NCBI GenBank assembly: GCA_021810605.1
Contig: JAJZIL010000001.1
Coordinates: 67,412-131,411, forward strand
DNA: 64,000 nt
Reading direction: 5' to 3'
Source: a bacterium
GTDB taxonomy: Bacteria; Patescibacteriota; Dojkabacteria; JAKAPS01; JAJZLI01
Part shown: one piece after another, positions 1,573 to 50,669 of the stretch
Numbering within the stretch: the stretch's first letter is position 1
Layout of the letters: each line of letters begins with the position of its first letter
The notes under the pieces: model-generated
Databases searched by the model: none
What the model was told of the DNA's origin: nothing
The model's input: the letters and a program-made list of their open reading frames with translations, nothing else
Position numbers and translations under genes: made by a program

Positions 1573-2916
1573 ATGCATGATAATGTTAATGCAATCTGGA
1601 AGATTGCATCATCTCAAATAAAAATTAAGATTAATGAAAATAATTTTAAGATCTGGTTTAATAAAATAAAACTTGAATCTATACAAAATAATGTTGCAAC
1701 TATTTCTTGTCAAAACTCTTTTACATCCGACTACATACAAAAAAATTATCTAAATATAGTTAAAAATTCAATAAAAGAAGTTTATGGGTCAAATATTGAC
1801 TTAGTTTTCAAAGTAAGGCCAGAAGATATTAATTTAGAAGAGGAACCTATATTTGCATCTTTTGATGAGACAAAGAATAAAAATATAACTCTTCATTCAA
1901 ATTTAAATCCTAAATACAAGATTTCAAATTTTATAGTTGGATCCTCAAATAGGCTTGCTCATGCAGCAGCTTTAGCTATAATAGATTCTCCAGGAACTCT
2001 TTATAATCCTTTTTTTATATATGGAGGAGTTGGTCTAGGAAAAACACATCTTATGCAAGCTATTGGAAATGAACTATTATCTAAAAATCCAGATATAAAA
2101 ATTACATATATGAGTAGTGAGACACTTTTAAATGATTTTATAAACTCAATAGTAAAAGGAAAAAATGAAAATTTTAGAAAAAAATATAGAGAAAATGATA
2201 TTCTCATAATAGATGATATTCAATTTATATCTGGAAAAAAGGGAATTCAGGAAGAATTTTTTCATACATTTAATACATTACAACAAGCAAATAAACAGAT
2301 AATTTTGGCTTCAGATAGACATCCAAAAGAAATTGAAAATCTAGAGGAACGTTTAGTTTCTCGTTTTGAAGGTGGGATGGTAGCAGATATAACTAATCCA
2401 GATGAAGAGATGAGAATAGCAATTCTTAGAAAAAAATGCCAGGAAAAAAATATAGAAATTGATGAAGAAATTATAAATTTAATATCTGAGAATATTAATT
2501 CTAATATAAGGGAATTAGAAGGAATTCTAACAAAGATAGTTGCAACTGAAAATATTTTAAATAAAAAACTTAGTAAGGATGAGGTTTCAAAACTTATTGG
2601 TATTAATATAAAGAAAAGAAATAGAATTTTGAAGCCAAAGGATATACTTACTGGTGTTTGTGAAAAATTCGGAATATCTCAAAGAGAAATAATTGGAGAA
2701 AAAAGAACAAATAAAATTGCTCTTCCTAGACAAGTTGCTATGTATATGCTTAGAAAAGATCTAAATTTACCTTTGACTGAAGTTGCAAATATACTTAAGA
2801 GAAAAGATCATACTACAGTTTTACATGCTGTGGATAAGATAGAGAAATTAATAGATTCAGATGTATATATAAAAGATGATATTAGTGATATAAGAAGCTC
2901 TTTAGATAGATTTTAA
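1573..2916 (+). CDS. dnaA: chromosomal replication initiator protein DnaA
   Basis: AAA+ Walker A GGVGLGKTHL, Walker B ILIIDDIQF, C-terminal DnaA DNA-binding helix-turn-helix (LPRQVAMYMLRKDLNLPLTEVANILKRKDHTTVLHAVDKIE). Confidence 0.97.
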   Translation: MHDNVNAIWKIASSQIKIKINENNFKIWFNKIKLESIQNNVATISCQNSFTSDYIQKNYLNIVKNSIKEVYGSNIDLVFKVRPEDINLEEEPIFASFDETKNKNITLHSNLNPKYKISNFIVGSSNRLAHAAALAIIDSPGTLYNPFFIYGGVGLGKTHLMQAIGNELLSKNPDIKITYMSSETLLNDFINSIVKGKNENFRKKYRENDILIIDDIQFISGKKGIQEEFFHTFNTLQQANKQIILASDRHPKEIENLEERLVSRFEGGMVADITNPDEEMRIAILRKKCQEKNIEIDEEIINLISENINSNIRELEGILTKIVATENILNKKLSKDEVSKLIGINIKKRNRILKPKDILTGVCEKFGISQREIIGEKRTNKIALPRQVAMYMLRKDLNLPLTEVANILKRKDHTTVLHAVDKIEKLIDSDVYIKDDISDIRSSLDRF

Positions 2917-3232
2917 AAATGTGATTTTAATGTGTTATCTATGTGGATTATATGTTTATAACCTTTTGATTTTGTGGATATTAATTTATAGTAATAAACA
3001 TATATTTTTAATTTATACTACATCTATACACATTATTAAATCCATAAAAATAACATTTTTAAATTTTTAAATACTATGTTTGCAATAAAAAAATAAAATG
3101 TATATTATGAACAAATTAAACACACTAATATTTACTTTTATAAAAAGATATATTTACATTTAGTTTAAGTTATGAACATTACTACTTAAACTACTAATTT
3201 TATATATAATATATTATATAGATTTAATAAAT
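2917..3232. other. candidate oriC segment: AT-rich dnaA-dnaN spacer with two DnaA-box-like sites (TGTGGATTA 2942-2950; TGTGGATAT 2973-2981)
   Basis: Each box has one mismatch to TGTGGATAA (complement of TTATCCACA). The 316-bp spacer is extremely AT-rich and has the classic dnaA-dnaN position. Confidence 0.45.
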
Positions 3233-4369
3233 ATGGATATAAATATTATTAGAGAAAATTTTATAGAACTTTTAAATTTTAATATTAAAACACAATCATC
3301 TAAGGTTAGTATTCCAATCCTTTCAAATGTATATATAGAAGCAAAAGATGGTAAATTAACTTTAAAAAGTACTAATCTTGAAAACAGTATAATCTCTGTA
3401 TCTGGAGTTGAAGTAAAAAAAGAAGGTGTTACTACTGTAAATATGAAAAATTTATATGATTTTGTTTCTAATCTTAAATCAGAAGTTATAAATATTAAAC
3501 TAAATGATAATCAACTTACAGTATCAGATAATAACAATCATATTCTTTTAAATACTATATCTGCAGAAGAATTTCCAGAAATACCAGATTCTAAAGGAGA
3601 TCTAATTTTAAAAATACCTGCTTTTGATTTTGCGACAGCACTTGATAAAGTAACATTTTCAACTTCAACTGATCTTTCAAAAGTAATATTATCAGGAGTT
3701 TTATTTCAATTTGATGATAAAGTTCTAAAACTTGTTGGTATTAATGGATTTAGATTCTCTAGTTTTGAGGTAGATAAAATAGTAAATGAGTCTAAAACTG
3801 AATTATCTGAGATAATAGTACCTTCTTATTCATTAGATAGTATATCAAAGATTATAAAGGATTTATCTATGGATAATGATTCTTTTGTATATGTATATAT
3901 GTTTGGAAAGAACAATCAATTAATTTTTGAAATAGAAAATGTTAAGTTTGTAGTAAGGTTAATAGAAGGTAAATATCCTGATTATCAAAAAATTTTCCCA
4001 ACAGATTATGAATGTGAATTCACTATATCTACAGAAGATTTAAAAGATGTTGTTAAATTATCAAGTATATTCAGATTTAAAGATATATCTAGAATATATT
4101 TAGATATAGATCCTAAGGAAGGTGCAATTAGATTTCAATCTTCTTTAAAGGAGGTTGGAGAAAGTAATTCTATTATAAAGACAAAGATTAAAGGAAATAA
4201 ATCAGTAGTGAGTTTTAATTCTAAATATATAATGGATTTTTTAAATCATACAGATTCTGATAAATTAGAGGTTTTTATTAATCCTTCATCTTTGAAAAAA
4301 GTATCAAAATTTCAAGAAAAAGATAATTCTAAATTTATTTATCTAGTAATGCCTCTTTTAGAAAGGTAA
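3233..4369 (+). CDS. dnaN: DNA polymerase III beta subunit (sliding clamp)
   Basis: 378 aa, three-domain clamp length, immediately after dnaA; N-terminal MDINIIRENFIELLNFNIKTQS... pattern typical of DnaN. Confidence 0.9.
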   Translation: MDINIIRENFIELLNFNIKTQSSKVSIPILSNVYIEAKDGKLTLKSTNLENSIISVSGVEVKKEGVTTVNMKNLYDFVSNLKSEVINIKLNDNQLTVSDNNNHILLNTISAEEFPEIPDSKGDLILKIPAFDFATALDKVTFSTSTDLSKVILSGVLFQFDDKVLKLVGINGFRFSSFEVDKIVNESKTELSEIIVPSYSLDSISKIIKDLSMDNDSFVYVYMFGKNNQLIFEIENVKFVVRLIEGKYPDYQKIFPTDYECEFTISTEDLKDVVKLSSIFRFKDISRIYLDIDPKEGAIRFQSSLKEVGESNSIIKTKIKGNKSVVSFNSKYIMDFLNHTDSDKLEVFINPSSLKKVSKFQEKDNSKFIYLVMPLLER

Positions 4370-9215: not shown

Positions 9216-9235
9216 AAATTATTTGTTTGCCAAAT

Positions 9236-9958
9236 ATGACACCAAGACAAGCTAAAATACTTGAGTATGTGATATTGGAATATATGGAGACTGCACAAGC
9301 AGTAGGCTCTGTTGCAATGGCAAATAAATATGGGATCAATGTATCTCCTGCGACTATAAGAAATGAGATGTCAAATCTTATAAATCAAGGGTTTCTTTCG
9401 AAAGAGCATTTTTCTTCAGGGAGAATCCCTACGATAGTTGGATTTAGGTATTACATTGAGAATTTGCTCTTTGAAGAACAACTTAATTATCTAGAGGAGA
9501 TGGAGATAAAAGAAAAACTCCACGCAGTAAGGTTTCAAAAGGAAAAAATTTTAAGAAGTGCAGTAGAATCTTTAGCTAAGTCTTTGAAATATACTGCGAT
9601 AGCTCTTGCTTCAGATTCTATTTATTATGCAGGTATTTCTGAAATTTTAGATTATCCTGAGTTTGAAGATATCTCTACACTTAGGAATATAATGTCTGTT
9701 ATAGAGAATTATGATATATTAGAGAGTATTTTTGAAAAAGGGAATAAATTTGAGGGTGGAGTTAAAATTTTAATGGGAGAAGAAACAGGTTTTGCTAGTT
9801 TTAACTCTTGTTCTATTGCTTATTCTGGGTTCAGAATACATAGAGGGGAGCAAGGTTATCTTGCAGTGATAGGACCTTTTAGAATGGATTATAAAAAGGT
9901 ACTTCCTTATTTAAGATATACAGTAGAAGTCTTGGAAGAGGCTACTTCTGGTTGGTAA
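9236..9958 (+). CDS. hrcA: heat-inducible transcription repressor HrcA (short form)
   Basis: MTPRQAKILEYVILEYMETAQAVGSVAMANKYGINVSPATIRNEMSNLINQGFLSKEHFSSGRIPT matches the HrcA N-terminal winged-helix consensus; the track ORF starts at TTG 9227, ATG at 9236 is more likely. Confidence 0.85.
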   Translation: MTPRQAKILEYVILEYMETAQAVGSVAMANKYGINVSPATIRNEMSNLINQGFLSKEHFSSGRIPTIVGFRYYIENLLFEEQLNYLEEMEIKEKLHAVRFQKEKILRSAVESLAKSLKYTAIALASDSIYYAGISEILDYPEFEDISTLRNIMSVIENYDILESIFEKGNKFEGGVKILMGEETGFASFNSCSIAYSGFRIHRGEQGYLAVIGPFRMDYKKVLPYLRYTVEVLEEATSGW

Positions 9959-9977
9959 TTTTATTATATAAATAATT

Positions 9978-10535
9978 ATGGCTGAAAAAAAAATAAAGAA
10001 AGAACAAAAAAAAGATATATCAGAAGAAACTATTGATATTGGAGAAGATACTATAATAGAAGAATTGGACTTAAAAGATAAAATGATAGAGTCACTGACT
10101 CATGAAAAAGAAGATTTAGAGATAAAACTTAAATCTGCTCTTTCTGATTATCAAAATTTTAAGAGAAGAGTTGAAACAGAGAAAGAGAATAGTTCTAATG
10201 TACTTAACAATATTGTTTTAAGAGAATTTCTAAATGTTTTAGATAATATATATCTTTATATGAAGCATTTAGAAAAAGACAAAAGTGTTAGTGATTCTAT
10301 TTTATCAGGAATCAAATTGATTTATGATCAGTGTAATGAGATAGTAGTATCTCAAGGTCTATCATTAGAAGAAGTAAAAGAAGGAGATAGTGTATCTCCC
10401 CTACTTCATGAAGTTGTAGGTACAGTTACAGGAGAAAGAGATGGAATAATTACAGAGGTGGTTAGGGTAGGATATGTAAAAGATGGAAATGTAGTAAGAG
10501 CTGCAAGAGTCATTGTTGAAAAAAAAGAAATTTAA
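9978..10535 (+). CDS. grpE: nucleotide exchange factor GrpE
   Basis: Coiled-coil N-terminus and LSDYQNFKRRVETEKEN region typical of GrpE; position between hrcA and dnaK. Confidence 0.9.
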   Translation: MAEKKIKKEQKKDISEETIDIGEDTIIEELDLKDKMIESLTHEKEDLEIKLKSALSDYQNFKRRVETEKENSSNVLNNIVLREFLNVLDNIYLYMKHLEKDKSVSDSILSGIKLIYDQCNEIVVSQGLSLEEVKEGDSVSPLLHEVVGTVTGERDGIITEVVRVGYVKDGNVVRAARVIVEKKEI

Positions 10536-10557
10536 TTTATTTTAGTATATAAAAATT

Positions 10558-12492
10558 ATGTCAAAAATATTAGGAATCGATCTAGGAACAACTAATTCTG
10601 CTATGGCCTTTATGGAAGGTGGAGAGCCAGTAGTAATAACTAACTCTGAAGGAGCTAGAACAACACCTTCTGTTGTTGCAATACTTCCAGATAAGTCTAG
10701 AGCTGTTGGAGTTAGTGCAAAGAACCAAATGGTATTAAATCCTAAGCAAACTTTTTATTCTATAAAAAGGCTTATAGGAAGATCTTTTGATGATGAAGAG
10801 GTTCAGAGAGATATAAAGGTTTTTCCATTTGAGCTTAGAAAATCCTCTTCAGGAGGAGTTGAGGTTAAAGTTGGAGATGAGTGGTTAGCACCAGAGGCTA
10901 TATCAGCTATGGTTCTATCTAAACTTAAAGCAGATGCAGAAGCTTTTTTAGGTGAAAAAATTACAGAAGCTGTTATTACAGTTCCTGCTTATTTTGATGA
11001 TTCTCAAAGACAAGCTACTAAAAATGCAGGAAAAATTGCAGGGTTAGATGTAAAAAGAATAATTAATGAACCTACTTCTGCTGCTCTTGCATATGGTTTT
11101 GATAAAAAAGGAGAACAAACAATTGTAGTATACGATTTAGGTGGAGGAACTTTCGATGTATCTGTATTAGAGTTAGGAGATGGAATTTTTGAAGTTATTG
11201 CTACTAACGGGGATACTCACCTTGGAGGAGATGATTTTGATAGAAGAATAATTGATTTTATTGCAGATGATTTCAAAAAAACTAATGGGATTGATTTAAG
11301 AACTGATTCTGCAGCATTACAAAGACTTAAAGAAGCAGCAGAAAAGGCAAAAATAGAGCTTTCTTCTACAAATCAAGCTCAAATAAATATACCTTTCATA
11401 ACATCAGATGCAAATGGTCCAAAACATTTAAATATGACTATGACTAGAGCTCAACTAGAATCTCTTGTTAAAGATTTGGTTACAAGTACAATGGATCCTG
11501 TAAAAAAAGCTTTATCTGATGCGAAGAAGAAAGTAGAAGATATTGATGAGGTTATTTTGGTTGGTGGTATGACTAGAATGCCTGCTATTACAGATGCTGT
11601 AAAAGACTTTTTTAAGAAAGAACCTAATAAGAGTGTTAATCCTGATGAAGTTGTAGCTATTGGAGCTGCTGTACAGGGAGGTGTTTTATCTGGAGATGTT
11701 AGAGATGTAACTCTTCTAGATGTAACTCCTTTATCTTTAGGAATTGAGACATTAGGAGGAGTTTCCACAAGGATTATAGAGAGAAATTCTACAATTCCTA
11801 TTCAGAAGAAGCAGGTTTTCACTACGGCAGCTGACACTCAAACATCTGTAGAAATTCATATTCTACAAGGAGAGAGAGAATTTGCAAAAGATAATAAAAC
11901 TTTAGGTAGATTTATACTTGATGGTATTGCTCCAGCTAAAAGAGGAATTCCTCAAATAGAAGTAACTTTTGATATTGATGCAAATGGAATACTAAAAGTC
12001 TCTGCTCAAGATAAAGCTACAGGAAAAGAACAACATATAACTATTACTGCAAATACTTCTTTGTCAGACTCAGAAATAGAGAAATTACTAAAAGAGGCTA
12101 AAGAACACGAAGAAGAGGATAAAAAGAAAAAAGAGTTAGTAGATGTTAAGAATTCAGCAGAAACAGTAGCTTTTTCAGCTGAAACTTTCTTGAATGAAAA
12201 TAAAGATAAAATTGATCAAGAGAAACAGGATCAAATGCAATCTAAAATAACAGAACTTAGAGATATAGCTTCTAAAGAGGATACAGACAAAGAGTCTATT
12301 GAAAAAGCTCTTTCTGAATTGGAAACTTTAATGCAAGAGATTGGTTCCTCTATGAATCAACAAGCATCTTCTGAATCTAATCCTACTGGAGAAGAAAATC
12401 CTCCAGAAGGAGATGGTGCAACAGATCAAACAGATCAAAACTCAGGAGGAAGTGATTCAACTGATGATGTAAAAGAGGGTGAAGTTCTCTAA
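10558..12492 (+). CDS. dnaK: molecular chaperone DnaK (Hsp70)
   Basis: Hsp70 signatures [31 protein letters not shown]; 644 aa. Confidence 0.98.
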
Positions 12493-41122: not shown

Positions 41123-43189
41123 ATGGAGAATACTGAAAATGCGCATGCAGTACCACAAAATATAATGAGTGTCGAGTTCAAATTGATAGGAGATTTGTCT
41201 TTGAAACAATTTGTTTTTATAGCTGTTCCTCTGACACTAGGTTTTATAATGTATGTTTTTCATGTAAATAATTATATAACAATTGTATTTACTGGTTTTT
41301 TACTTCTAATAGCACTATTTATAGATTTTGTTCCTGTAGATGATAGACCATTAGATGATTTAATAGTAAATTTTTTAATTGCAATTAAAAACCCAACACA
41401 AAGAGTTTGGAGAAAAAATCCAGAATTTCCAAATATACTTAAAATTCCTAAAATATTAATGCCACAAGAAAAAAAGGATAGTGAAATTGCTACATTTATG
41501 TATCAATCTCCAATAGATAGTAATCTTAATTCACCTTCATCTTCAGATGCTTCGAAATTTTTAGATCAAAGAGAGAAAATTCTTATTGATAATATAGATA
41601 AATTAAATGATTCTCTCAATTCTACACCATCTGGAAACTCAATGGTATCTCCTTCTATTAATAATAATATTCCTTCTTCAGGGATGAATATAAATCCTCC
41701 TTTTATAAATCCATCAGGGAATAATATTAATTCTAATAATCCTCAGAAAGATGAAGTTAATCAATCACAAAATGTAGGAATGGGAACTGGGAATACGAGT
41801 TCGAATATATCATCTCAAAATTTAGGGAATAATAATTCTCCATTTGTTAATAATATTGGAGTAGACCAAAATTTATCGAAATCATCCTCTTTTTCTAATA
41901 ACAATAGTGTAAATGTATTGGAACCTCTAAGAAAACCAGATCCAAAAGATTTCTATAAAAAGTCTTCTGAAGATAATATTGAACATCCTATAAACACTGC
42001 AGTTTTTAATACAGGAAGTATTCCTACAGTTGATCCTAATATTAATCCTCAGAATCCATTTAATTCTGGAGTAGGGAATATTAGTTCAAATTTTGTTCCT
42101 AATACTCCACCTATAACAAATCCTAATATGGGAGTACCTCAAATGAATATTCCAAAAGTAGATAAGAATTATATTAATCCTAATAACAACCCTCCTATAC
42201 AAAATGAAATTAATAACTTCTCTCAACAACCAAGTGTAAATTTGCCACCTATACAACCAGATACAAATATTTCTCAGGGGCAGAATACTGTTCAATCTCT
42301 AACTCAAACAACAGTATCTACTTCATTTGATAGTAATTTAAGTGAACCTCCTGATACTTCGAGTGTGTCAGTAGATACAAATGCTATTCCTCATTCTTAT
42401 GATTATCTATCTTCCTCACCTTCAGAGACTCCTAAAATAGATGAAAATATTGTTAGTCAAACTGTAAATACTAATAAAACTCTTGATCCAGATATTGATA
42501 TAAAAAAAATACTTGAGAAACTAGAAAAACTTGAGAAAGAAAATGATAAGTTAAAAAAACAAGTTGATGAGCAAAATGAAAAAATTGATATAGCTCAAGA
42601 AGTCATAGATCAAAAAAATAGACAAGATGAAATTAATGTATCTAACGTATCCTCGGAGACTCCTTCTCCAAGTCCACAAGATGATATTTCTAATACATTG
42701 GGTATTAATCCTGTATTTGAAAATAATTCTATTCAACCTAGTGTAGATACTACAATTTTAGATTCTAAGAATCAGAAGGAAATTCCTTCTGAAAATAACT
42801 TAAGTTCCTCTATGACTAATCTTACATCACAATCTAATGTATCTACTCAGAATCCAGAGACTACAAAGTCTTCTAAGCAAGAGAGTTTGAAGAAAGAAGA
42901 TATTTTAAAATACCTTCCAGATTTTGTCAGTAATCCGAATATAATCTCTGGTGTAGTTATGAAAAATACAGGGCAGATCCTTCCTGATACAGTAATAATA
43001 ATAAAAGATTCTTCACAAAAACCAGTTAGAGCTATTAAGACTAATCAATTAGGACAATTCTTTATTAGGACTCCTCTTTTGTCAGGAACGTATAATTTAG
43101 AAATTGCATATCAAGGTTTGACATTTGATCCTATCTTTATAGAACTTGATGATACTGTTAAGGATCCTATGTTAATTTATTCAAAATAA
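41123..43189 (+). CDS. PrgI/VirB3-like two-TM protein fused to a long low-complexity extracellular region, coiled coil and C-terminal CarboxypepD_reg-like beta-sandwich
   Basis: N-terminus VEFKLIGDLSLKQFVFIAVPLTLGFIMYVF plus second TM (PrgI-family pattern); about 400 aa N/S/P-rich; coiled coil ILEKLEKLEKENDKLKKQVDEQNEKIDIAQE; C-terminal ISGVVMKNTGQILPDTVIIIKD...GQFFIRTPLLSGTYNLEIAYQG. Confidence 0.5.
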   Translation: MENTENAHAVPQNIMSVEFKLIGDLSLKQFVFIAVPLTLGFIMYVFHVNNYITIVFTGFLLLIALFIDFVPVDDRPLDDLIVNFLIAIKNPTQRVWRKNPEFPNILKIPKILMPQEKKDSEIATFMYQSPIDSNLNSPSSSDASKFLDQREKILIDNIDKLNDSLNSTPSGNSMVSPSINNNIPSSGMNINPPFINPSGNNINSNNPQKDEVNQSQNVGMGTGNTSSNISSQNLGNNNSPFVNNIGVDQNLSKSSSFSNNNSVNVLEPLRKPDPKDFYKKSSEDNIEHPINTAVFNTGSIPTVDPNINPQNPFNSGVGNISSNFVPNTPPITNPNMGVPQMNIPKVDKNYINPNNNPPIQNEINNFSQQPSVNLPPIQPDTNISQGQNTVQSLTQTTVSTSFDSNLSEPPDTSSVSVDTNAIPHSYDYLSSSPSETPKIDENIVSQTVNTNKTLDPDIDIKKILEKLEKLEKENDKLKKQVDEQNEKIDIAQEVIDQKNRQDEINVSNVSSETPSPSPQDDISNTLGINPVFENNSIQPSVDTTILDSKNQKEIPSENNLSSSMTNLTSQSNVSTQNPETTKSSKQESLKKEDILKYLPDFVSNPNIISGVVMKNTGQILPDTVIIIKDSSQKPVRAIKTNQLGQFFIRTPLLSGTYNLEIAYQGLTFDPIFIELDDTVKDPMLIYSK

Positions 43190-43201
43190 GATTTAATAGT
43201 T

Positions 43202-43888
43202 ATGGCTTTATTTGGAAATTCAACACAAAATAATACTCCTATTGTAGCAACTACACAGGATCATCTTAATATATATGATATAAAGGATAATTTTTTAATA
43301 TTAAAGGATAAGAATGTATGTGTAGTAATTGAAACTTCTGCAGTAAATTTTTATCTATTATCTGAAGTAGAGCAGAATTCTAAAATATATGCTTTTGCAG
43401 GAATGCTTAATTCTCTTGGTTTTTATATACAGGTAATGATTCATACTGAAAATGTTGATATATCTTCATATCTTAAAAATATAGATGAATATAAGATAAA
43501 ACAGCAAGACCCTAAGATAAAATATCAAATTGATATATATAGAAAATTTGTTAAAGATCTTATTGTTAAAAATAATGTTTTAGATAAGCATTTTTATATT
43601 GTAATTCCATATCTAACACTTATGCCTAAAAAACCTAGTTTTACTAGTAAAATTTTTGGGAAAGAAGATTCTAATTTTGATGTTGACAGTATGATTTCAC
43701 AGTCATCTTCAAGACTTATTCCTAGAAGGGATCATGTTATAAGACAGCTTTCTAGAATGGGATTAAAATCCAAACAGCTTGAGAGTGCTGAACTTATAAA
43801 ACTTTTTTATAATATATATAATCCTATGAATGCTAAAATTAGAGAAGGTTTTGATGAATATACTAGTCCTATTGTAACTTATAAATAA
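43202..43888 (+). CDS. VirB4 N-terminal-segment-like protein (probable first part of a split Gram-positive-type VirB4)
   Basis: IYDIKDNFLILKDKNVCVVIETSAVNFYLLSEVEQNSKIYAFAGMLNSLGFYIQVMIHTENVDISSYL follows the pattern recalled for the extreme N-terminus of PrgJ/TcpF/TraE-type VirB4 ATPases; stops 2 nt before the next ORF in another frame. Confidence 0.4.
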   Translation: MALFGNSTQNNTPIVATTQDHLNIYDIKDNFLILKDKNVCVVIETSAVNFYLLSEVEQNSKIYAFAGMLNSLGFYIQVMIHTENVDISSYLKNIDEYKIKQQDPKIKYQIDIYRKFVKDLIVKNNVLDKHFYIVIPYLTLMPKKPSFTSKIFGKEDSNFDVDSMISQSSSRLIPRRDHVIRQLSRMGLKSKQLESAELIKLFYNIYNPMNAKIREGFDEYTSPIVTYK

Positions 43889-43890
43889 AT

Positions 43891-46401
43891 ATGAAAATAC
43901 CTTTTAATCTTTTAAAAAATAATGATAATAATCAGACAAATAATGTAGTTCAGGGGTCTATCGATAATCCTGTGATTGAAGGGAATCCTAATTATAAGAA
44001 TACAGATCCAGTTTCTTCTTTTGGTATGGGGATAAATTCAATTAAGGATATTATTGCTCCCCCTTCAATAGAGGTTGATTTCTCTCATATAAAAATAGGT
44101 GAGAAATTTTATAGAACATATTTTGTATTAGCATACCCTAGATATGTTGTTCCAAATTGGCTTTCTCCTCTTATCACATTTGAGCATTCAATTGATATAA
44201 GTATGTTTTATTATCCTATTAATGCTGCAGCTGTAATAACTAAACTTAGAAATAAGATTGCTGAGATGGAAGCTTCTACAAATAATCTAATAGAATCTGG
44301 AAAGGTGATGGATCCTAATTTGAAAGTTGCTTTATCAGATGCGAAGGAATTACAAGAAAATTTAGCAAAAGGAGCGGAGAGATACTTTCATTTTGCATTA
44401 TATGTGACAGTAAGGGCTGGTAGTCAAAATGAGTTAGAAGATATTTCTAAAAATTTAGAGTCTACAATGGGTGCAATGTCACTTATTATAAAACCATCAA
44501 CACTTCAGATGGAAGAAGGTTTTTTATCAACACTTCCTTCAGCAAGTGACAAGCTCTATTATACACATAATATGGATACAACATCCATTGCAACAACTTT
44601 TCCTTTTGTATCCTCTGAGCTTACTTCTGATAGAGGTGTACTATATGGTATTAATAAAGCCAATAAAAGTTTAGTAGTATTTGATCGATTTGAATTAGAA
44701 AATGCTAATTCAGTTATTTTTGCAAAGTCAGGTGCAGGAAAAAGTTATTTAGTAAAGTTAGAGGCATTAAGATCTTTAATGTTAGGAACACAGATAATAA
44801 TAGTGGATCCAGAGAGTGAGTATGAACAGTTATGTAAATCTTTAAATGGTGTGTATATAACATTTTCTCAAGATACTGGATCTAAGATAAATCCTTTTGA
44901 TCTATCAGGTGTTTATGAAGAAGGTGAAGATGAATTAAGGTTTAAAATTCTTTCTCTACATGGTCTTTTTAAAGTTATGTTAGGTGAAGATGGAGGAATT
45001 AGTAGTATGGAAAATGCTATTTTAGACAAAGCTTTGATTTTGACATATCGAGATAAAGGCATAACATTTGATCCTGATACACAAACAAAACAACCACCAT
45101 TAATGGAAGATCTATATAAGATTCTTCAATCAATGGAAGAGCAAGAAGCACATTCTTTAGCACAAAGGTTAGAAAAATATGTTAAAGGTTCTGCTTCTGG
45201 AATTTTTGATCAACAGACAAATGTAAATTTAGATAATGACTTTATTGTTTTTTCAATAAAAGATCTTTCAGATGAATTAAGGCCAGTATCTATGTATTTA
45301 ATGTTAGATTTTATATGGACTAGGGTAAAGAAAGAGCTTAGGAGAAGGATTTTTATAATAGATGAAGCCTGGCTTTTAATGAAGTATCCAGATTCAGCAG
45401 AGTTTGTTTATGCAGTAGCAAAAAGAGCAAGGAAATATTATCTTGGACTGACAACTATTTCTCAGGATGTAGATGATTTTCTTTCTAGTGATTATGGAAA
45501 AGCTGTAGTGACTAACTCTTCAATACAGATATTATTGAGACAGTCTCCAACTGCAATGGATCATTTAGCAGAAGTATTTTATCTTTCTGCAGGGGAGAAA
45601 AATTTATTGCTTAGTGCGGAAGTAGGAGAAGGAATATTTTTTGTTGGAGCTAATCATGTGGCAATCCAGGTTCTTTCATCTGAATATGAAAATACTCTTA
45701 TAACAACAAATCCTGAAGAAATATTAAAAATGAGGAGAAGTCAGTCATCTTTAGACAGAATTGTTCCTAATAATGCAATGAATGAGAACTCTAAAGTGTA
45801 CACTGTAAATAATCCAAAAATAGTAGTAAATATGTCTCAAAATAAGTCTAATACAATATCTGATACAGAAGAAAATACAAATTTAAATCCTTTAGAGAAT
45901 GAGAATGTATTATTTGATGATAGTACAGCTCAAGATACTAATAATACAGCTCCAAATATTAATAATTTTGATCTGTCTGGTGATACTGCAGATAATTCTA
46001 GTGCTATTCAAACTCAAAATGAATTTATTGATACTACAGAAAATTTAAATATTCCTCCTGTAGATAATAATTCTAATCCAATTATTACTCAAAATATGGA
46101 GGAAAACGTTTCTAGTACTAATGATCAAATACCTAATCCTAATTTAGGACAAAGTATTAATGCAGTTCCAGATTTTAACACAAGTACTCAAAGTGATAAT
46201 GGTGTAGATATTCCAACTGAATCTATTCCAGATACTGTAGATATTTCATCTACAAATAGACCTAATGTTAATCCTATTACTCAAGATGCTCAAAAAAATC
46301 AGGTAGAAAGCTCTTATGATACAATAGATACCAATTTAGGAACAACATATTCATTTAAGAATTTTACCCAAGAGAATCCTGTGAATAATTCTCCTCAATA
46401 A
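43891..46401 (+). CDS. VirB4/TraC/PrgJ-like type IV secretion ATPase with about 230-aa low-complexity C-terminal tail
   Basis: N-domain FSHIKIGEKFYRTYFVLAYPRYVVPNWLSPLITFEHSIDISMFYYP; Walker A FAKSGAGKSY; Walker B IFIIDEAWLL; RKYYLGLTTISQDVDDF; tail rich in N/T/S/P/D. Confidence 0.8.
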   Translation: MKIPFNLLKNNDNNQTNNVVQGSIDNPVIEGNPNYKNTDPVSSFGMGINSIKDIIAPPSIEVDFSHIKIGEKFYRTYFVLAYPRYVVPNWLSPLITFEHSIDISMFYYPINAAAVITKLRNKIAEMEASTNNLIESGKVMDPNLKVALSDAKELQENLAKGAERYFHFALYVTVRAGSQNELEDISKNLESTMGAMSLIIKPSTLQMEEGFLSTLPSASDKLYYTHNMDTTSIATTFPFVSSELTSDRGVLYGINKANKSLVVFDRFELENANSVIFAKSGAGKSYLVKLEALRSLMLGTQIIIVDPESEYEQLCKSLNGVYITFSQDTGSKINPFDLSGVYEEGEDELRFKILSLHGLFKVMLGEDGGISSMENAILDKALILTYRDKGITFDPDTQTKQPPLMEDLYKILQSMEEQEAHSLAQRLEKYVKGSASGIFDQQTNVNLDNDFIVFSIKDLSDELRPVSMYLMLDFIWTRVKKELRRRIFIIDEAWLLMKYPDSAEFVYAVAKRARKYYLGLTTISQDVDDFLSSDYGKAVVTNSSIQILLRQSPTAMDHLAEVFYLSAGEKNLLLSAEVGEGIFFVGANHVAIQVLSSEYENTLITTNPEEILKMRRSQSSLDRIVPNNAMNENSKVYTVNNPKIVVNMSQNKSNTISDTEENTNLNPLENENVLFDDSTAQDTNNTAPNINNFDLSGDTADNSSAIQTQNEFIDTTENLNIPPVDNNSNPIITQNMEENVSSTNDQIPNPNLGQSINAVPDFNTSTQSDNGVDIPTESIPDTVDISSTNRPNVNPITQDAQKNQVESSYDTIDTNLGTTYSFKNFTQENPVNNSPQ

Positions 46402-47219: not shown

Positions 47220-48317
47220 ATGAGTGATTATTATGAAATATTAGGCATATCCAAATCAGCAGACGAGAAAGAAATAAAAAGAGCATATAGAAAGCTTGCA
47301 GGTGAGTATCATCCTGATAAAAATAGTTCTCCTGATGCGGATAAAAAATTTAAAGAAATTAATGAGGCATACTCTGTTCTATCAGATAGTCAAAAAAGAG
47401 CTAATTATGATAGATTTGGAAATGCTGAGCCCTTTGGTCCTGGAGGAAATTCCGGTTCTGGTGGGTATGAAGAAAGTACTGGAGGATTTTCAAATTTCTC
47501 ATCTGCAGGGTTTGGAGGATTCGAGGATATATTCTCAGATTTTTTTGGAGGTAATTTTAATTTTTCTGATTCAAGAAATAGTAATAGTTCAAAGGACTCT
47601 TCTGGAGAAGATATTAGGGTTATAATTGATGTAACTCTAGAGGAGGTTATTTTCCCAACTGAGAGAGAAATTGCTTTTTATGCAATGAATAAATGTTCTC
47701 ACTGTAAAGGAACTGGATCTAAAAGTGGAAAAGTATCAGTTTGTAGTAATTGTAATGGAACCGGAAAGGTTAGAAAAGTAACTCAAAGTTTTATTGGAAA
47801 TATTGCAATGGAGAGTATCTGTAATACTTGTAAAGGTACTGGGAAGGTTATCTCAGATAAATGTAATTATTGTTTAGGTACAGGTAGGGTTAAGGAGATA
47901 AAAAAAATGAAAATTAAAATACCACAAGGTGCAAATGATGATACTGTACTAAAATTTGCTGGAGCAGGTTCAGTAGGTGAGAATAATGCTTCAAGTGGTG
48001 ATTTATATATAAATATTAAAGTGGCACAACATAAATTATATAAAAGACAAGGGAATGATCTTTTAGGAGTAGTTACTATTGATATCCCTACAGCTGTATT
48101 AGGAGGTATAGTTCCTGTTCAGACAATATATGAGAAAGTTAACTTAAAAATACCTTCAGGAGTACAAGATGGAGAGAAATTTAAGATAAAGAATAAAGGA
48201 GTTCCTTTTCTTCATGGACACAAGGTAGGAGATTATATAGTAACAATTAAAATTAATATACCTAAACATCTTTCTTTTAAAGAAAAAAAGTTATATCAAG
48301 AATTGAAAGATATATAA
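47220..48317 (+). CDS. dnaJ: molecular chaperone DnaJ
   Basis: J domain with HPD (YHPDKN), G/F-rich linker, four CxxCxGxG zinc-finger repeats. Confidence 0.95.
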
Positions 48318-48441: not shown

Positions 48442-48987
48442 TTAGATGTTTTGTAATGTAGTTATAGTTTTTATTATTTGAAAATCCTCTCTAAGGACAG
48501 ACTTCATATTAGGATTATATAATCCTACTGCTGGATGATAAAGTGGAATAATTTTATATTTTCCATATTTAAAAACTTTGCCATGTATTTGAGATATTTT
48601 TCTATCTTTTAGGAATAATGAAGTAGAATATCTTCCGAGGGTACATATAAGAATAGGGTCAATTAATTTTATTTGTATTTTTAAATAAGGGGAACAGGCA
48701 TTGATCTCATCTTCTTTAGGATCCCTATTTTGAGGTGGTCTACATTTTACTATATTTGTAATAAATATATCTTCTCTTTTAAGATTTATACTTTCTAACA
48801 ACTCATCAAGAATTTTTCCTGACCTTCCACAAAAAGGTATTCCTTCTCTATCCTCATTCTCTCCTGGAGCTTCTCCTATAAAGAATATTTTAGAGTGAAT
48901 ATTACCTTCTCCTGGTACTGCATTTTTTCTATCTTTGCATAAGTTACACTTATTGCAGTTAATAATTTCTTTTCTTATCTTATCCAT
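48442..48987 (-). CDS. uracil-DNA glycosylase, family 4
   Basis: CNKCNLC ... GEGN ... IFFIGEAPGENED ... GIPFCGRSGKILDELL is the family-4 UDG motif set. Confidence 0.85.
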   Translation of the reverse strand: MDKIRKEIINCNKCNLCKDRKNAVPGEGNIHSKIFFIGEAPGENEDREGIPFCGRSGKILDELLESINLKREDIFITNIVKCRPPQNRDPKEDEINACSPYLKIQIKLIDPILICTLGRYSTSLFLKDRKISQIHGKVFKYGKYKIIPLYHPAVGLYNPNMKSVLREDFQIIKTITTLQNI

Positions 48988-50015
48988 TAATATCCAATAG
49001 GTAAGAATAGTTTTAAATTATCTTTATTGATCTCTACTAAATCTATCTTTTCAAGTAGAATCTTTTTAGCAACTCTTCTTCCAATATTCATAAGAACTCT
49101 CTCAAGTTCTCTTATTCCTGCCTCATATCCGAGAGGCCTTATTATATCAGCCCATATATCATCATCTATTTTTATTTGACTCTCAGATAACCCAATTTGT
49201 TTATATACCTTAGGCATTATAAAATCTTTAGCTATTTTTAATTTTTCATCATCTGAGTATGAAGAAAATCGTATAATTTCTAGCCTATCAAGTAGAGCTG
49301 ATGATATAGTTCCTAGATTATTTGCAGTTAGTATAAACATTACTTTTGATAGATCAATTGGAAAATCTATGTAATGATCTATAAATGATGAATTTTGTTC
49401 AGGATCTAATATCTCTAAAAATGTTGCCATTATAGCAGATCGGACACTTCCTTCATCTGAAATTTTATCAAATTCATCTAAGAGTATTACAGGATTCATA
49501 CTTCCAGCTCTAGCTATAGCTTTAATAATATATCCAGGTTCTGCATCTGGATTAACCTTTGACTGCCCTCTAATTTCTAATACTGAAGATATTCCGCCAA
49601 GAGCTATTCGTACAAAATTCCTATTTAGTGCTTCAGCGATTGATTTTGCAATTGTAGTTTTTCCAATCCCTTGTAATCCTACAAAACATAAAACTGGAGC
49701 AGGCTGATCTTTGTTAAAATTCATTGATGCAAGGTATTCTAGAACTCTCTCTTTGACATCATTCATTCCATAATGGTTTTTATCTAGAATTGATTTAGCA
49801 TTAGAAATATCTAAATTATCAGTAGTAATTGTATTCCAAGGAATTTGAGTGATCGTATCTATATATTTAGAAGCAACTTCATAGTCCGATGAATAGCTTT
49901 TAAATTTAGACATTCTCTCTAGTCTTCTTAATATTATTTCTGTATTTTCTTTAAGTGTATCTGGGAGAAAGTTATCTGTAACCTTATCTTTTAAATTCTG
50001 TATATCATCTGTCAT
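48987..50015 (-). CDS. Lon-like AAA+ ATPase module lacking both the N-terminal LON domain and the S16 protease domain
   Basis: Collinear with Lon residues about 250-600: YIDTITQIPWN ... HYGMNDVKERVLEYLA; Walker A GLQGIGKTT; LLDEFDK; ILDPEQNSSFIDHYIDFPIDLSKVMFILTAN; LLDRLEIIRFSSYSDDEKLKIAK. ORF ends right after the AAA module. Confidence 0.8.
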   Translation of the reverse strand: MTDDIQNLKDKVTDNFLPDTLKENTEIILRRLERMSKFKSYSSDYEVASKYIDTITQIPWNTITTDNLDISNAKSILDKNHYGMNDVKERVLEYLASMNFNKDQPAPVLCFVGLQGIGKTTIAKSIAEALNRNFVRIALGGISSVLEIRGQSKVNPDAEPGYIIKAIARAGSMNPVILLDEFDKISDEGSVRSAIMATFLEILDPEQNSSFIDHYIDFPIDLSKVMFILTANNLGTISSALLDRLEIIRFSSYSDDEKLKIAKDFIMPKVYKQIGLSESQIKIDDDIWADIIRPLGYEAGIRELERVLMNIGRRVAKKILLEKIDLVEINKDNLKLFLPIGY

Positions 50016-50018
50016 AAT

Positions 50019-50669
50019 TTAAAATATTCTTCCGATTAAATATCCAAGTAAAGCTGCAATCATACCAATTATCATTATTTCAAGCCCATTCTTTATTCTA
50101 GATTGACCTTTTTCTACTGTTTTTACAAGCCCTATTATAAGAAGTGTTAATGCAGATAAGATGATTGATAAAGGTAGAGCTATAGGTACTTTTAGAAATA
50201 TGTATGGAAGAGTTGGAATTATAGCTCCAATTAAGAATGATGCTCCCATAAAAATTGCATCTATTATTGGACTTACAATTTTATCAATATCTATTCCTAA
50301 TATCAGATTAGAGGCTATCTTTTTCCCAAATTCTGGATAATCTTTTATTATTTCCATAAATTTTTTGATATCAGATTTTTTCAATTTATCTTCAGTTAAT
50401 TCTTGTTCAATTAGAATTTCTGACATTTCTTTAGAATTCTTTGATTTTATCTCTAATACATCTTTTTGAGTTTTGGCTCCAAGATAAGTTCCTGTAGCCA
50501 TAGATATAGCACCTCCAACTCCTGCAGTTAGAGCTGATATTATTAGTATTCTAGTATCAGAAACATATGCAAGTGTTGTAGTAAGAATAATTGTTGTAAC
50601 TAGTCCATCTTGTATTCCAAATACGATCTGTTTGATTTGAAATATAAGACTATCTTTAAGTTTTGACAT
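50019..50669 (-). CDS. VIT1/CCC1-family membrane protein (putative Fe/Mn transporter)
   Basis: GIQDGLVTTIILTTTLAYVS ... core and five TMs consistent with PF01988. Confidence 0.65.
   Translation of the reverse strand: MSKLKDSLIFQIKQIVFGIQDGLVTTIILTTTLAYVSDTRILIISALTAGVGGAISMATGTYLGAKTQKDVLEIKSKNSKEMSEILIEQELTEDKLKKSDIKKFMEIIKDYPEFGKKIASNLILGIDIDKIVSPIIDAIFMGASFLIGAIIPTLPYIFLKVPIALPLSIILSALTLLIIGLVKTVEKGQSRIKNGLEIMIIGMIAALLGYLIGRIF

Follow-up and report, generated by a model that had tools for sequence, protein, structure and literature searches.

The question raised by the locus described here is what a Lon motor does without a protease. Lon is among the most widely conserved ATP-dependent proteases, and the fusion of motor and protease in one chain is held to be its defining design. 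In a 64,000-nucleotide stretch of a Dojkabacteria genome (GenBank assembly GCA_021810605.1, contig JAJZIL010000001.1, positions 67,412 to 131,411 of the forward strand), an open reading frame (ORF) of 342 amino acids (aa) on the minus strand corresponds to the central part of Lon only. We refer to the whole 64-kb stretch as the window and count positions from its first letter. An initial annotation, made from the sequence of the window, had taken the ORF for a dedicated protease-less Lon-derived ATPase rather than a fresh truncation of a lon gene. We found that the protein is a Lon-type AAA+ module of the HCLR clade with a complete nucleotide site, and that it belongs to a family, here called short Lon, that is conserved across several lineages of the candidate phyla radiation (CPR) under strong purifying selection. 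Its pattern of kept and lost residues suggests that short Lon is probably a ring-forming, non-proteolytic ATPase that does not thread polypeptides in the canonical way and serves as a remodeller or chaperone.

A complete Lon AAA+ module

The ORF is intact, starting with ATG and ending with TAA. In Pfam, the protein matches AAA at residues 109–251 (E = 3e-21) and Lon_lid at residues 272–323 (E = 2e-11), and no match to Lon_C or to LON_substr_bdg (PF02190) was found in its 342 residues. The NCBIfam model TIGR00763 (endopeptidase La) is matched with an E value of 4e-110 over model positions 253–568 of 795; the score of 369.6 bits falls below the 608-bit cutoff because the model lacks coverage at both ends, and that for NF008053 is likewise below cutoff (280 against 891). 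When the Protein Data Bank (PDB) was searched with phmmer, the protein aligned end to end with Bacillus subtilis Lon (3m6a, E = 2e-87) and likewise with human LONP1, and it matched residues 249–579 of E. coli Lon (6u5z, E = 2e-76). Clp-family models gave weak scores of at most 40 bits, far under the Lon match. The colinearity with central Lon claimed in the initial annotation is borne out by these alignments.

On a Lon profile of 787 positions the protein covers positions ~251–583, which hold the N-terminal three-helix bundle, the AAA+ domain and the lid. Missing relative to full-length Lon are the globular LON N domain, the long helix and the S16 protease domain. The initial annotation was right that the LON-N and protease domains are both absent, yet the first ~60 residues do come from the Lon N-terminal region, as they form its three-helix bundle. 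The alignment of this bundle starts at residue 249 of E. coli Lon and residue 244 of M. taiwanensis Lon, and its Y51 (Lon Y294) is kept in 163 of 165 family sequences. The same annotation had the ORF end after the SGY..DEK motif, which is incorrect: this motif lies at about residue 255, and the ~90 residues beyond it span a complete lid, so that the AAA+ module is whole. The lid matches the Lon alpha-domain structures 1qzm and 1x37 in the PDB search. An AlphaFold2 (AF2) monomer model built from a 47-sequence alignment has a predicted local distance difference test score (pLDDT) of 90.3 and a predicted template-modelling score (pTM) of 0.84. Foldseek ranks LONP1, Y. pestis Lon and E. coli Lon as the best matches of the model, at template-modelling scores of 0.81–0.89, and the model superimposes on Lon AAA modules with a root-mean-square deviation of 2.4–3.8 Å at 36–41% identity.

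Functional residues were assigned by the numbering of Y. pestis Lon, for which a functional map is available (Shin et al. 2020, PMC7239648). The counts at each position cover 165 short proteins and 28 full-length Lons. The Walker A lysine K119 (Lon K362) is present in every one of both sets. The Walker B pair, the sensor-1 asparagine, the sensor-2 arginine and the arginine finger that acts in trans, whose role is described for R484 in the same study, are equally invariant (Table 1). The pre-sensor-1 beta-hairpin lies at about residues 205–225. Here Y215 (Lon Y456) is a tyrosine in 159/165 short and 28/28 full-length proteins, D217 (Lon E458) is an aspartate in 161/165 and 25/28, and the bridging E206 (Lon E447) is a glutamate in 140/165 and 28/28. 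Judged from the alignment, no residue needed for ATP binding and hydrolysis has been lost, and the hairpin residues through which adjacent subunits are coupled are kept too.

Short Lon therefore compares closely with LonA (E. coli, Y. pestis, B. subtilis, LONP1; MEROPS S16) in having the three-helix bundle, an HCLR AAA+ domain with a pre-sensor-1 hairpin, the lid, and identical Walker A/B, sensor-1, arginine-finger and sensor-2 residues. It differs in lacking the globular LON N domain, the long helix and the Ser-Lys catalytic S16 domain. The surroundings of the kept residues also differ: the Walker A motif is GLQGxGKT in short Lon and GPPGVGKT in LonA, and the sensor-2 region reads RPLG[FY][DE]AGIR in place of YTREAGVR.

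A conserved family in CPR bacteria

The best 120 homologs among 5.8 billion proteins are all 342–456 aa long and carry AAA and Lon_lid only, and their named sources are Patescibacteria and Dojkabacteria. Our family sample comprises at least 165 CPR/Patescibacteria homologs with common boundaries. Against the full-length-Lon profile every short protein runs from position ~251 to position ~583 of 787, and the catalytic-serine motif of that profile lies at 678–685. Among species-representative genomes we found ~47 CPR loci with ORFs of 348–472 aa that end no more than 12 aa from the lid; these loci carry the labels Dojkabacteria/WS6, WWE3, Woykebacteria, Shapirobacteria, Nomurabacteria, Patescibacteria and 'Saccharibacteria'. 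The ~32 non-CPR loci in these genomes (Bryobacterales, Nitrospirales, Endomicrobium and others) encode full-length Lon of 772–884 aa. An exhaustive hidden Markov model (HMM) search of 1.84 billion cluster representatives placed 16 short-type proteins among its top 149, all of which stop at the lid or bear low-complexity tails only. Extra domains were considered in four of the short-family proteins (P0147, P0146, P0153 and P0126) and rejected, the extensions being low-complexity tails rich in Q, P, N and S.

Short-family cluster representatives score 400–500 bits with a short profile and 260–330 bits with the Lon profile. We define the family by a length of 340–470 aa, coverage of Lon positions ~251–583, the signature motifs GLQGxGKT, DAEPG and RPLGxxAGIR, and a short-profile score well above the canonical one; the window protein carries all three motifs. 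In a neighbour-joining tree built on Kimura distances the short proteins form one clade in 50 of 50 bootstraps, on a stem branch of 0.27. The closest full-length Lons come from Ktedonobacterales/Chloroflexi, Clostridiales and one eukaryote, and none from CPR. The family descends from LonA, with domain limits that are equal in every member. The ratio of nonsynonymous to synonymous substitution rates (dN/dS) of the window gene is 0.039 against a 93%-identical homolog and 0.09–0.13 against more distant ones.

A recent truncation, pseudogene or assembly artefact of a full-length lon, for which the short length alone would speak, is practically out of the question. The boundaries of the gene are found again in at least 165 homologs, dN/dS is 0.04–0.13 and the catalytic residues are invariant. 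Intact genes adjoin both ends, namely a VIT1-family gene that ends 3 nt upstream and a family-4 uracil-DNA glycosylase (UDG) gene whose ATG overlaps the stop codon (TAATG). No frame holds a Lon remnant: when the N and C parts taken from eight full-length Lons were searched by tblastn in all six frames of the 64-kb window and of 51 CPR loci, with flanks of up to 10 kb on each side of the gene, the best E value was 0.22, which rules out a frameshifted or adjacent protease domain there. The initial annotation had likewise described unrelated complete genes at both ends and no flanking Lon remnants, and its view of the gene as a dedicated protease-less ATPase is now supported by homolog lengths, loci, clade, dN/dS and tblastn.

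In public databases the family is labelled 'ATP-dependent Lon protease' (JGI) or 'AAA family ATPase' (NCBI); the former is wrong on activity and the latter uninformative. In the literature that we searched, a Lon without its protease is described neither for CPR bacteria nor for other organisms. Several short Lons stand out in the collection. Five loci from metagenome-assembled genomes labelled 'uncultured Gammaproteobacteria' (L044–L047 and L050; G+C content (GC) 0.33–0.46) carry a CPR-type short Lon, several of them in the pnp-LON-UDG order of the CPR loci, and these taxonomic labels are probably wrong. At two further loci, L043 (10001–11328) and L052 (984–2273), the match span is longer than in other CPR loci; a stop falls within this span in L043, the product of L052 is 455 aa long, and an insertion, frameshift or intein-like element may be present in these short Lon genes.

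Pore loop 1 and the missing protease

The part of the module that has changed from LonA is pore loop 1, which reads QSKVNPD in short Lon of the window and HRRTY[IV]G in LonA. In the 28 full-length Lons, H394, R395, T397, Y398 and G400 are invariant and position 399 is I or V. The window protein has S152, K153, V154, N155 and P156 in this loop, with N155 and P156 at the positions of Y398 and I399, and so lacks both the aromatic-hydrophobic pair Y398-I399 and the tandem arginines R395/R396. The window protein shares the motif RGQSK[VA]NPDAE with its entire set of closest relatives, as far as ~57% identity. In the wider short family, the Y398 position is F in 35 proteins, N in 30, Y in 27, E in 20 and S in 12, with others in the remainder, giving an aromatic residue in 62 of 165 compared with tyrosine in 28 of 28 full-length Lons. 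The R395 position is mostly S or P and the G400 position mostly D, and the M402 position is E in 161 of 165 short proteins as opposed to M (22) or L (6) in the 28 full-length Lons. The net charge of the pore loop is −0.7 in the short family and +2.0 in full-length Lon. The ATP engine and the inter-subunit coupling have thus been preserved, and the substrate paddle has not.

We propose that short Lon works as a ring, likely a hexamer, that would cycle ATP as Lon does, because the invariant arginine finger acts across the subunit interface. Unfolded polypeptides would no longer be threaded into a degradation chamber, at least in the clade of the window protein, since there is neither a protease domain nor an adjacent protease gene and both the Tyr-Ile paddle and its flanking arginines have decayed. 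The protein would then most likely be a non-proteolytic, ATP-driven remodeller or chaperone, and its contacts with clients may be made by a three-helix-bundle collar together with a pore that is polar and acidic. Four points weigh against this proposal. Some short-Lon lineages may still thread polypeptides, because ~38% of the family keep an aromatic residue at the pore-loop position. The protease domain contributes to hexamer stability in LonA, and a ring of short Lon would have to form without it. Beyond the 64 kb of the window and the flanks of the other loci, the genomes may encode a full-length Lon, or an S16 peptidase as a gene of its own. Finally, the chaperone or remodeller role is arrived at by elimination.

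The third of these points leads to an alternative in which short Lon is the ATPase half of a split Lon, whose other half, a separate S16 peptidase or an N-less AAA-protease, is encoded elsewhere in the genome, as in ClpXP or HslUV. Two-component AAA+ proteases are common, and the sequence that we examined is the 64-kb window with flanks of up to 10 kb on each side at the other loci. We consider this arrangement unlikely. No Lon_C-like sequence came up in the tblastn search described above, and no protease family recurs among the conserved neighbours of the CPR short-Lon loci. Decay of the pore-loop Tyr-Ile pair and the tandem arginines is also unexpected for a motor that feeds a protease, and the closest full-length Lons are not from CPR. 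ClpX and HslU are single-ring HCLR AAA+ proteins without a fused protease and resemble short Lon, as proposed here, in all these respects, but they keep aromatic pore loops and dock on ClpP or HslV, whereas short Lon has a decayed loop and no peptidase partner in the sequence examined.

A second precedent for a split Lon is a set of tandem-AAA Lons, in which protease-less AAA modules work beside a protease-bearing one. These proteins (P0121–P0133; 960–1675 aa, AAA-AAA-Lon_C) topped our exhaustive profile search. Like short Lon, they have no LON N domain, and they contain AAA+lid modules without a protease joined directly to them; they differ by their C-terminal Lon_C and their occurrence in non-CPR contexts with GC 0.42–0.46, beside canonical Lon paralogs. 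We rejected the idea that short Lon is a detached D1 ring of such a protein, as the tandem modules score at least as high with canonical Lon as with the short-family profile; the non-CPR contexts and the canonical paralogs next door weaken the idea further. The resemblance of these modules to canonical Lon and not to the short family, on non-CPR contigs, speaks against the split Lon as well. We know of no description of such double-ring-type tandem-AAA Lons. Two or three AAA+lid modules with a single Lon_C and no LON N domain are seen in P0121–P0124, P0127, P0129, P0131 and P0133 and at the loci L086 (1434–10242) and L087 (1161–4139). L086 has three consecutive Lon genes (canonical, 786 aa; tandem, 1075 aa; N-less, 676 aa), and P0123 is a single gene with housekeeping surroundings on a 283-kb contig.

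Non-proteolytic work by lineages of AAA+ proteases, as we propose for short Lon, has precedents in chloroplast FtsHi and in the protease-independent chaperone activity reported for Lon/Pim1. Such derivatives retain a degenerate protease domain, whereas in short Lon the domain is cleanly deleted in every member examined. LonB, LonC and the BrxL-type defence proteins belong with short Lon to the wider Lon superfamily but have kept the S16 domain; LonB has a membrane insertion and the ATPase of LonC is inactive (PMC9569914). The clean loss of protease and recognition domain, with the motor still under selection, makes short Lon a natural experiment on the Lon motor without proteolysis and bears on protein quality control in bacteria with genomes below 1 Mb.

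Gene neighbourhood and the rest of the window

Table 1. Coordinates in the 64-kb window of the short Lon gene, its parts and its two adjoining genes.
Feature	Position	Strand	Basis
Lon-derived stand-alone AAA+ ATPase gene, 342 aa	48987..50015	-	ORF, Pfam AAA + Lon_lid, TIGR00763 253–568, AF2 model
Three-helix bundle (NTD3H) of LonA, residues 1–60	49836..50015	-	model helices 2–14, 19–36, 42–57
Linker helices and large alpha/beta AAA+ subdomain, residues 61–251	49263..49835	-	Pfam AAA 109–251
Walker A, G113-LQGIGK-T120	49656..49679	-	read from sequence; canonical Lon GPPGVGKT
Pore loop 1, residues 151–161, QSKVNPDAEPG	49533..49565	-	alignment to solved Lons; canonical HRRTY[IV]GAMPG
Walker B, D180-E181 (Lon D423/E424)	49473..49478	-	165/165 short, 28/28 full-length
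Sensor-1, N232 (Lon N473)	49320..49322	-	165/165 short, 28/28 full-length
Trans-acting arginine finger, R244 (Lon R484)	49284..49286	-	165/165 short, 28/28 full-length
Sensor-2, R302 (Lon R542)	49110..49112	-	165/165 short, 28/28 full-length
Lid subdomain, small alpha-helical, residues 252–338	49002..49262	-	Pfam Lon_lid 272–323
VIT1-family membrane protein gene	50019..50669	-	Pfam VIT1 E 4e-40; 3 nt upstream of short Lon
Family-4 UDG gene	48442..48987	-	TIGR00758 215 bits (cutoff 125); downstream of short Lon

The short Lon gene is probably co-transcribed with its VIT1 and UDG neighbours. A promoter and terminator scan says little in DNA this rich in AT: it gave 16 promoter-like sites, with 18 expected, and no minus-strand terminator between the three genes. 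The VIT1 neighbour is specific to the lineage of the window: among the clustered loci, its cluster (c47) occurs at this place only in the window and L001, and the same VIT1 gene is the neighbour in L002. Of all neighbours, UDG is kept most often across lineages: it is found downstream, on the strand of short Lon, in 20 CPR loci, and the downstream flank exceeds 2.5 kb in 42 of the loci. A NUDIX gene often stands between short Lon and UDG, and polynucleotide phosphorylase (PNPase) is encoded directly upstream in 17 loci.

Three arrangements recur in CPR. The first is nusA-infB-rpsO-pnp-LON-(NUDIX)-UDG-ftsK; the second is thyX-dcd-(class-V aminotransferase)-LON, after which a VirB4-like cluster lies in convergent orientation; and the third is yidC-jag-L25-LON. 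The window mixes them, with pnp, infB, nusA, VIT1, LON, UDG, dnaJ, sortase and VirB4. Old vertical inheritance of short Lon is indicated, because the GC of the gene matches that of the window (0.30 and 0.275) and because its surroundings are a conserved block of housekeeping genes (nusA, infB, rpsO, pnp). A role as the ATPase of a defence system was also considered and rejected. The best PADLOC match was DolB with 62.6 bits over residues 55–139 only, all matches being weak and generic to AAA (at most 63 bits), and this short match together with the housekeeping context (nusA, infB, pnp, UDG, dnaJ) argues against a defence assignment.

The neighbours suggest a further alternative, in which the ring acts in nucleic-acid maintenance, on DNA, RNA or the proteins bound to them, together with UDG, NUDIX, dCTP deaminase, ThyX or PNPase. 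The UDG and PNPase counts given above fit this idea, as do thyX and dcd upstream of short Lon in Dojkabacteria-type loci and the stop/start overlap with UDG in the window. Lon itself binds DNA, and the PDB lists 6n2i as 'DNA-binding ATP-dependent protease La'. An acidic pore loop is, however, ill-suited to gripping a nucleic-acid backbone, and the isoelectric point of the module (short-family median 5.7) is not above that of canonical Lon (5.85). The gene order can moreover be explained as inherited housekeeping synteny, and the loci are related, so that the counts are not independent. The synteny hints, weakly at best, at a functional link to nucleic-acid maintenance, and we regard a ring dedicated to that task as rather improbable.

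It is conceivable, if speculative, that a large part of CPR has no Lon homolog other than short Lon, that Lon proteolysis has been abandoned there, and that a non-threading ring with an acidic, non-aromatic pore remodels basic nucleoid- or ribosome-associated proteins or nucleic-acid repair intermediates in concert with UDG, NUDIX and PNPase. If true, this would add a functional class that is new to the HCLR AAA+ clade.

Genes for dUTP or uracil handling flank short Lon in two arrangements, with ThyX and dcd upstream in one and NUDIX and UDG downstream in the other. In the type B loci (for example L012, L022 and L040, over ~2.5–10 kb upstream of short Lon), ThyX and dCTP deaminase, both confirmed by Pfam, are encoded just upstream of short Lon, and folD- and glyA-like genes were recognised by eye ahead of thyX/dcd.

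The VirB4-like cluster is another recurrent neighbour. In the window it occupies positions 41123–46401 on the plus strand and consists of a VirB4/TraG-like ATPase (836 aa; 43891–46401) with two conserved upstream partners (clusters c5 and c6). The block is convergent with and close to short Lon in 19 CPR loci (L012, L014, L017, L019, L022, L024 and others), and this pairing of a block resembling a type IV secretion system with short Lon is conserved in Dojkabacteria-type genomes. Its position just downstream of the gene in those loci, and nearby in the window, would agree with short Lon being an adaptor or regulator of another protease or machine, such as FtsH, HtrA or the VirB4-type secretion system, and not an autonomous remodeller. 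We hold this to be very improbable. The convergent orientation means that the two are not co-transcribed, loci of the pnp-LON-UDG-FtsK type have no VirB4 association, and the sequence suggests no docking motif for another protease.

Elsewhere in the window, no other gene for an ATP-dependent protease is evident. Scans for tRNA genes and with Rfam returned nothing at threshold over the 64 kb. The dnaJ gene stands apart at 47220–48317, convergent with VIT1-LON-UDG, and an operon resembling hrcA-grpE-dnaK was identified by eye at 9227–12492. ORFs resembling dnaA and dnaN, also by eye, lie at 1573–4369 and likely mark a replication-origin region, and between 4 and 8 kb the GC of the window falls to ~20%.

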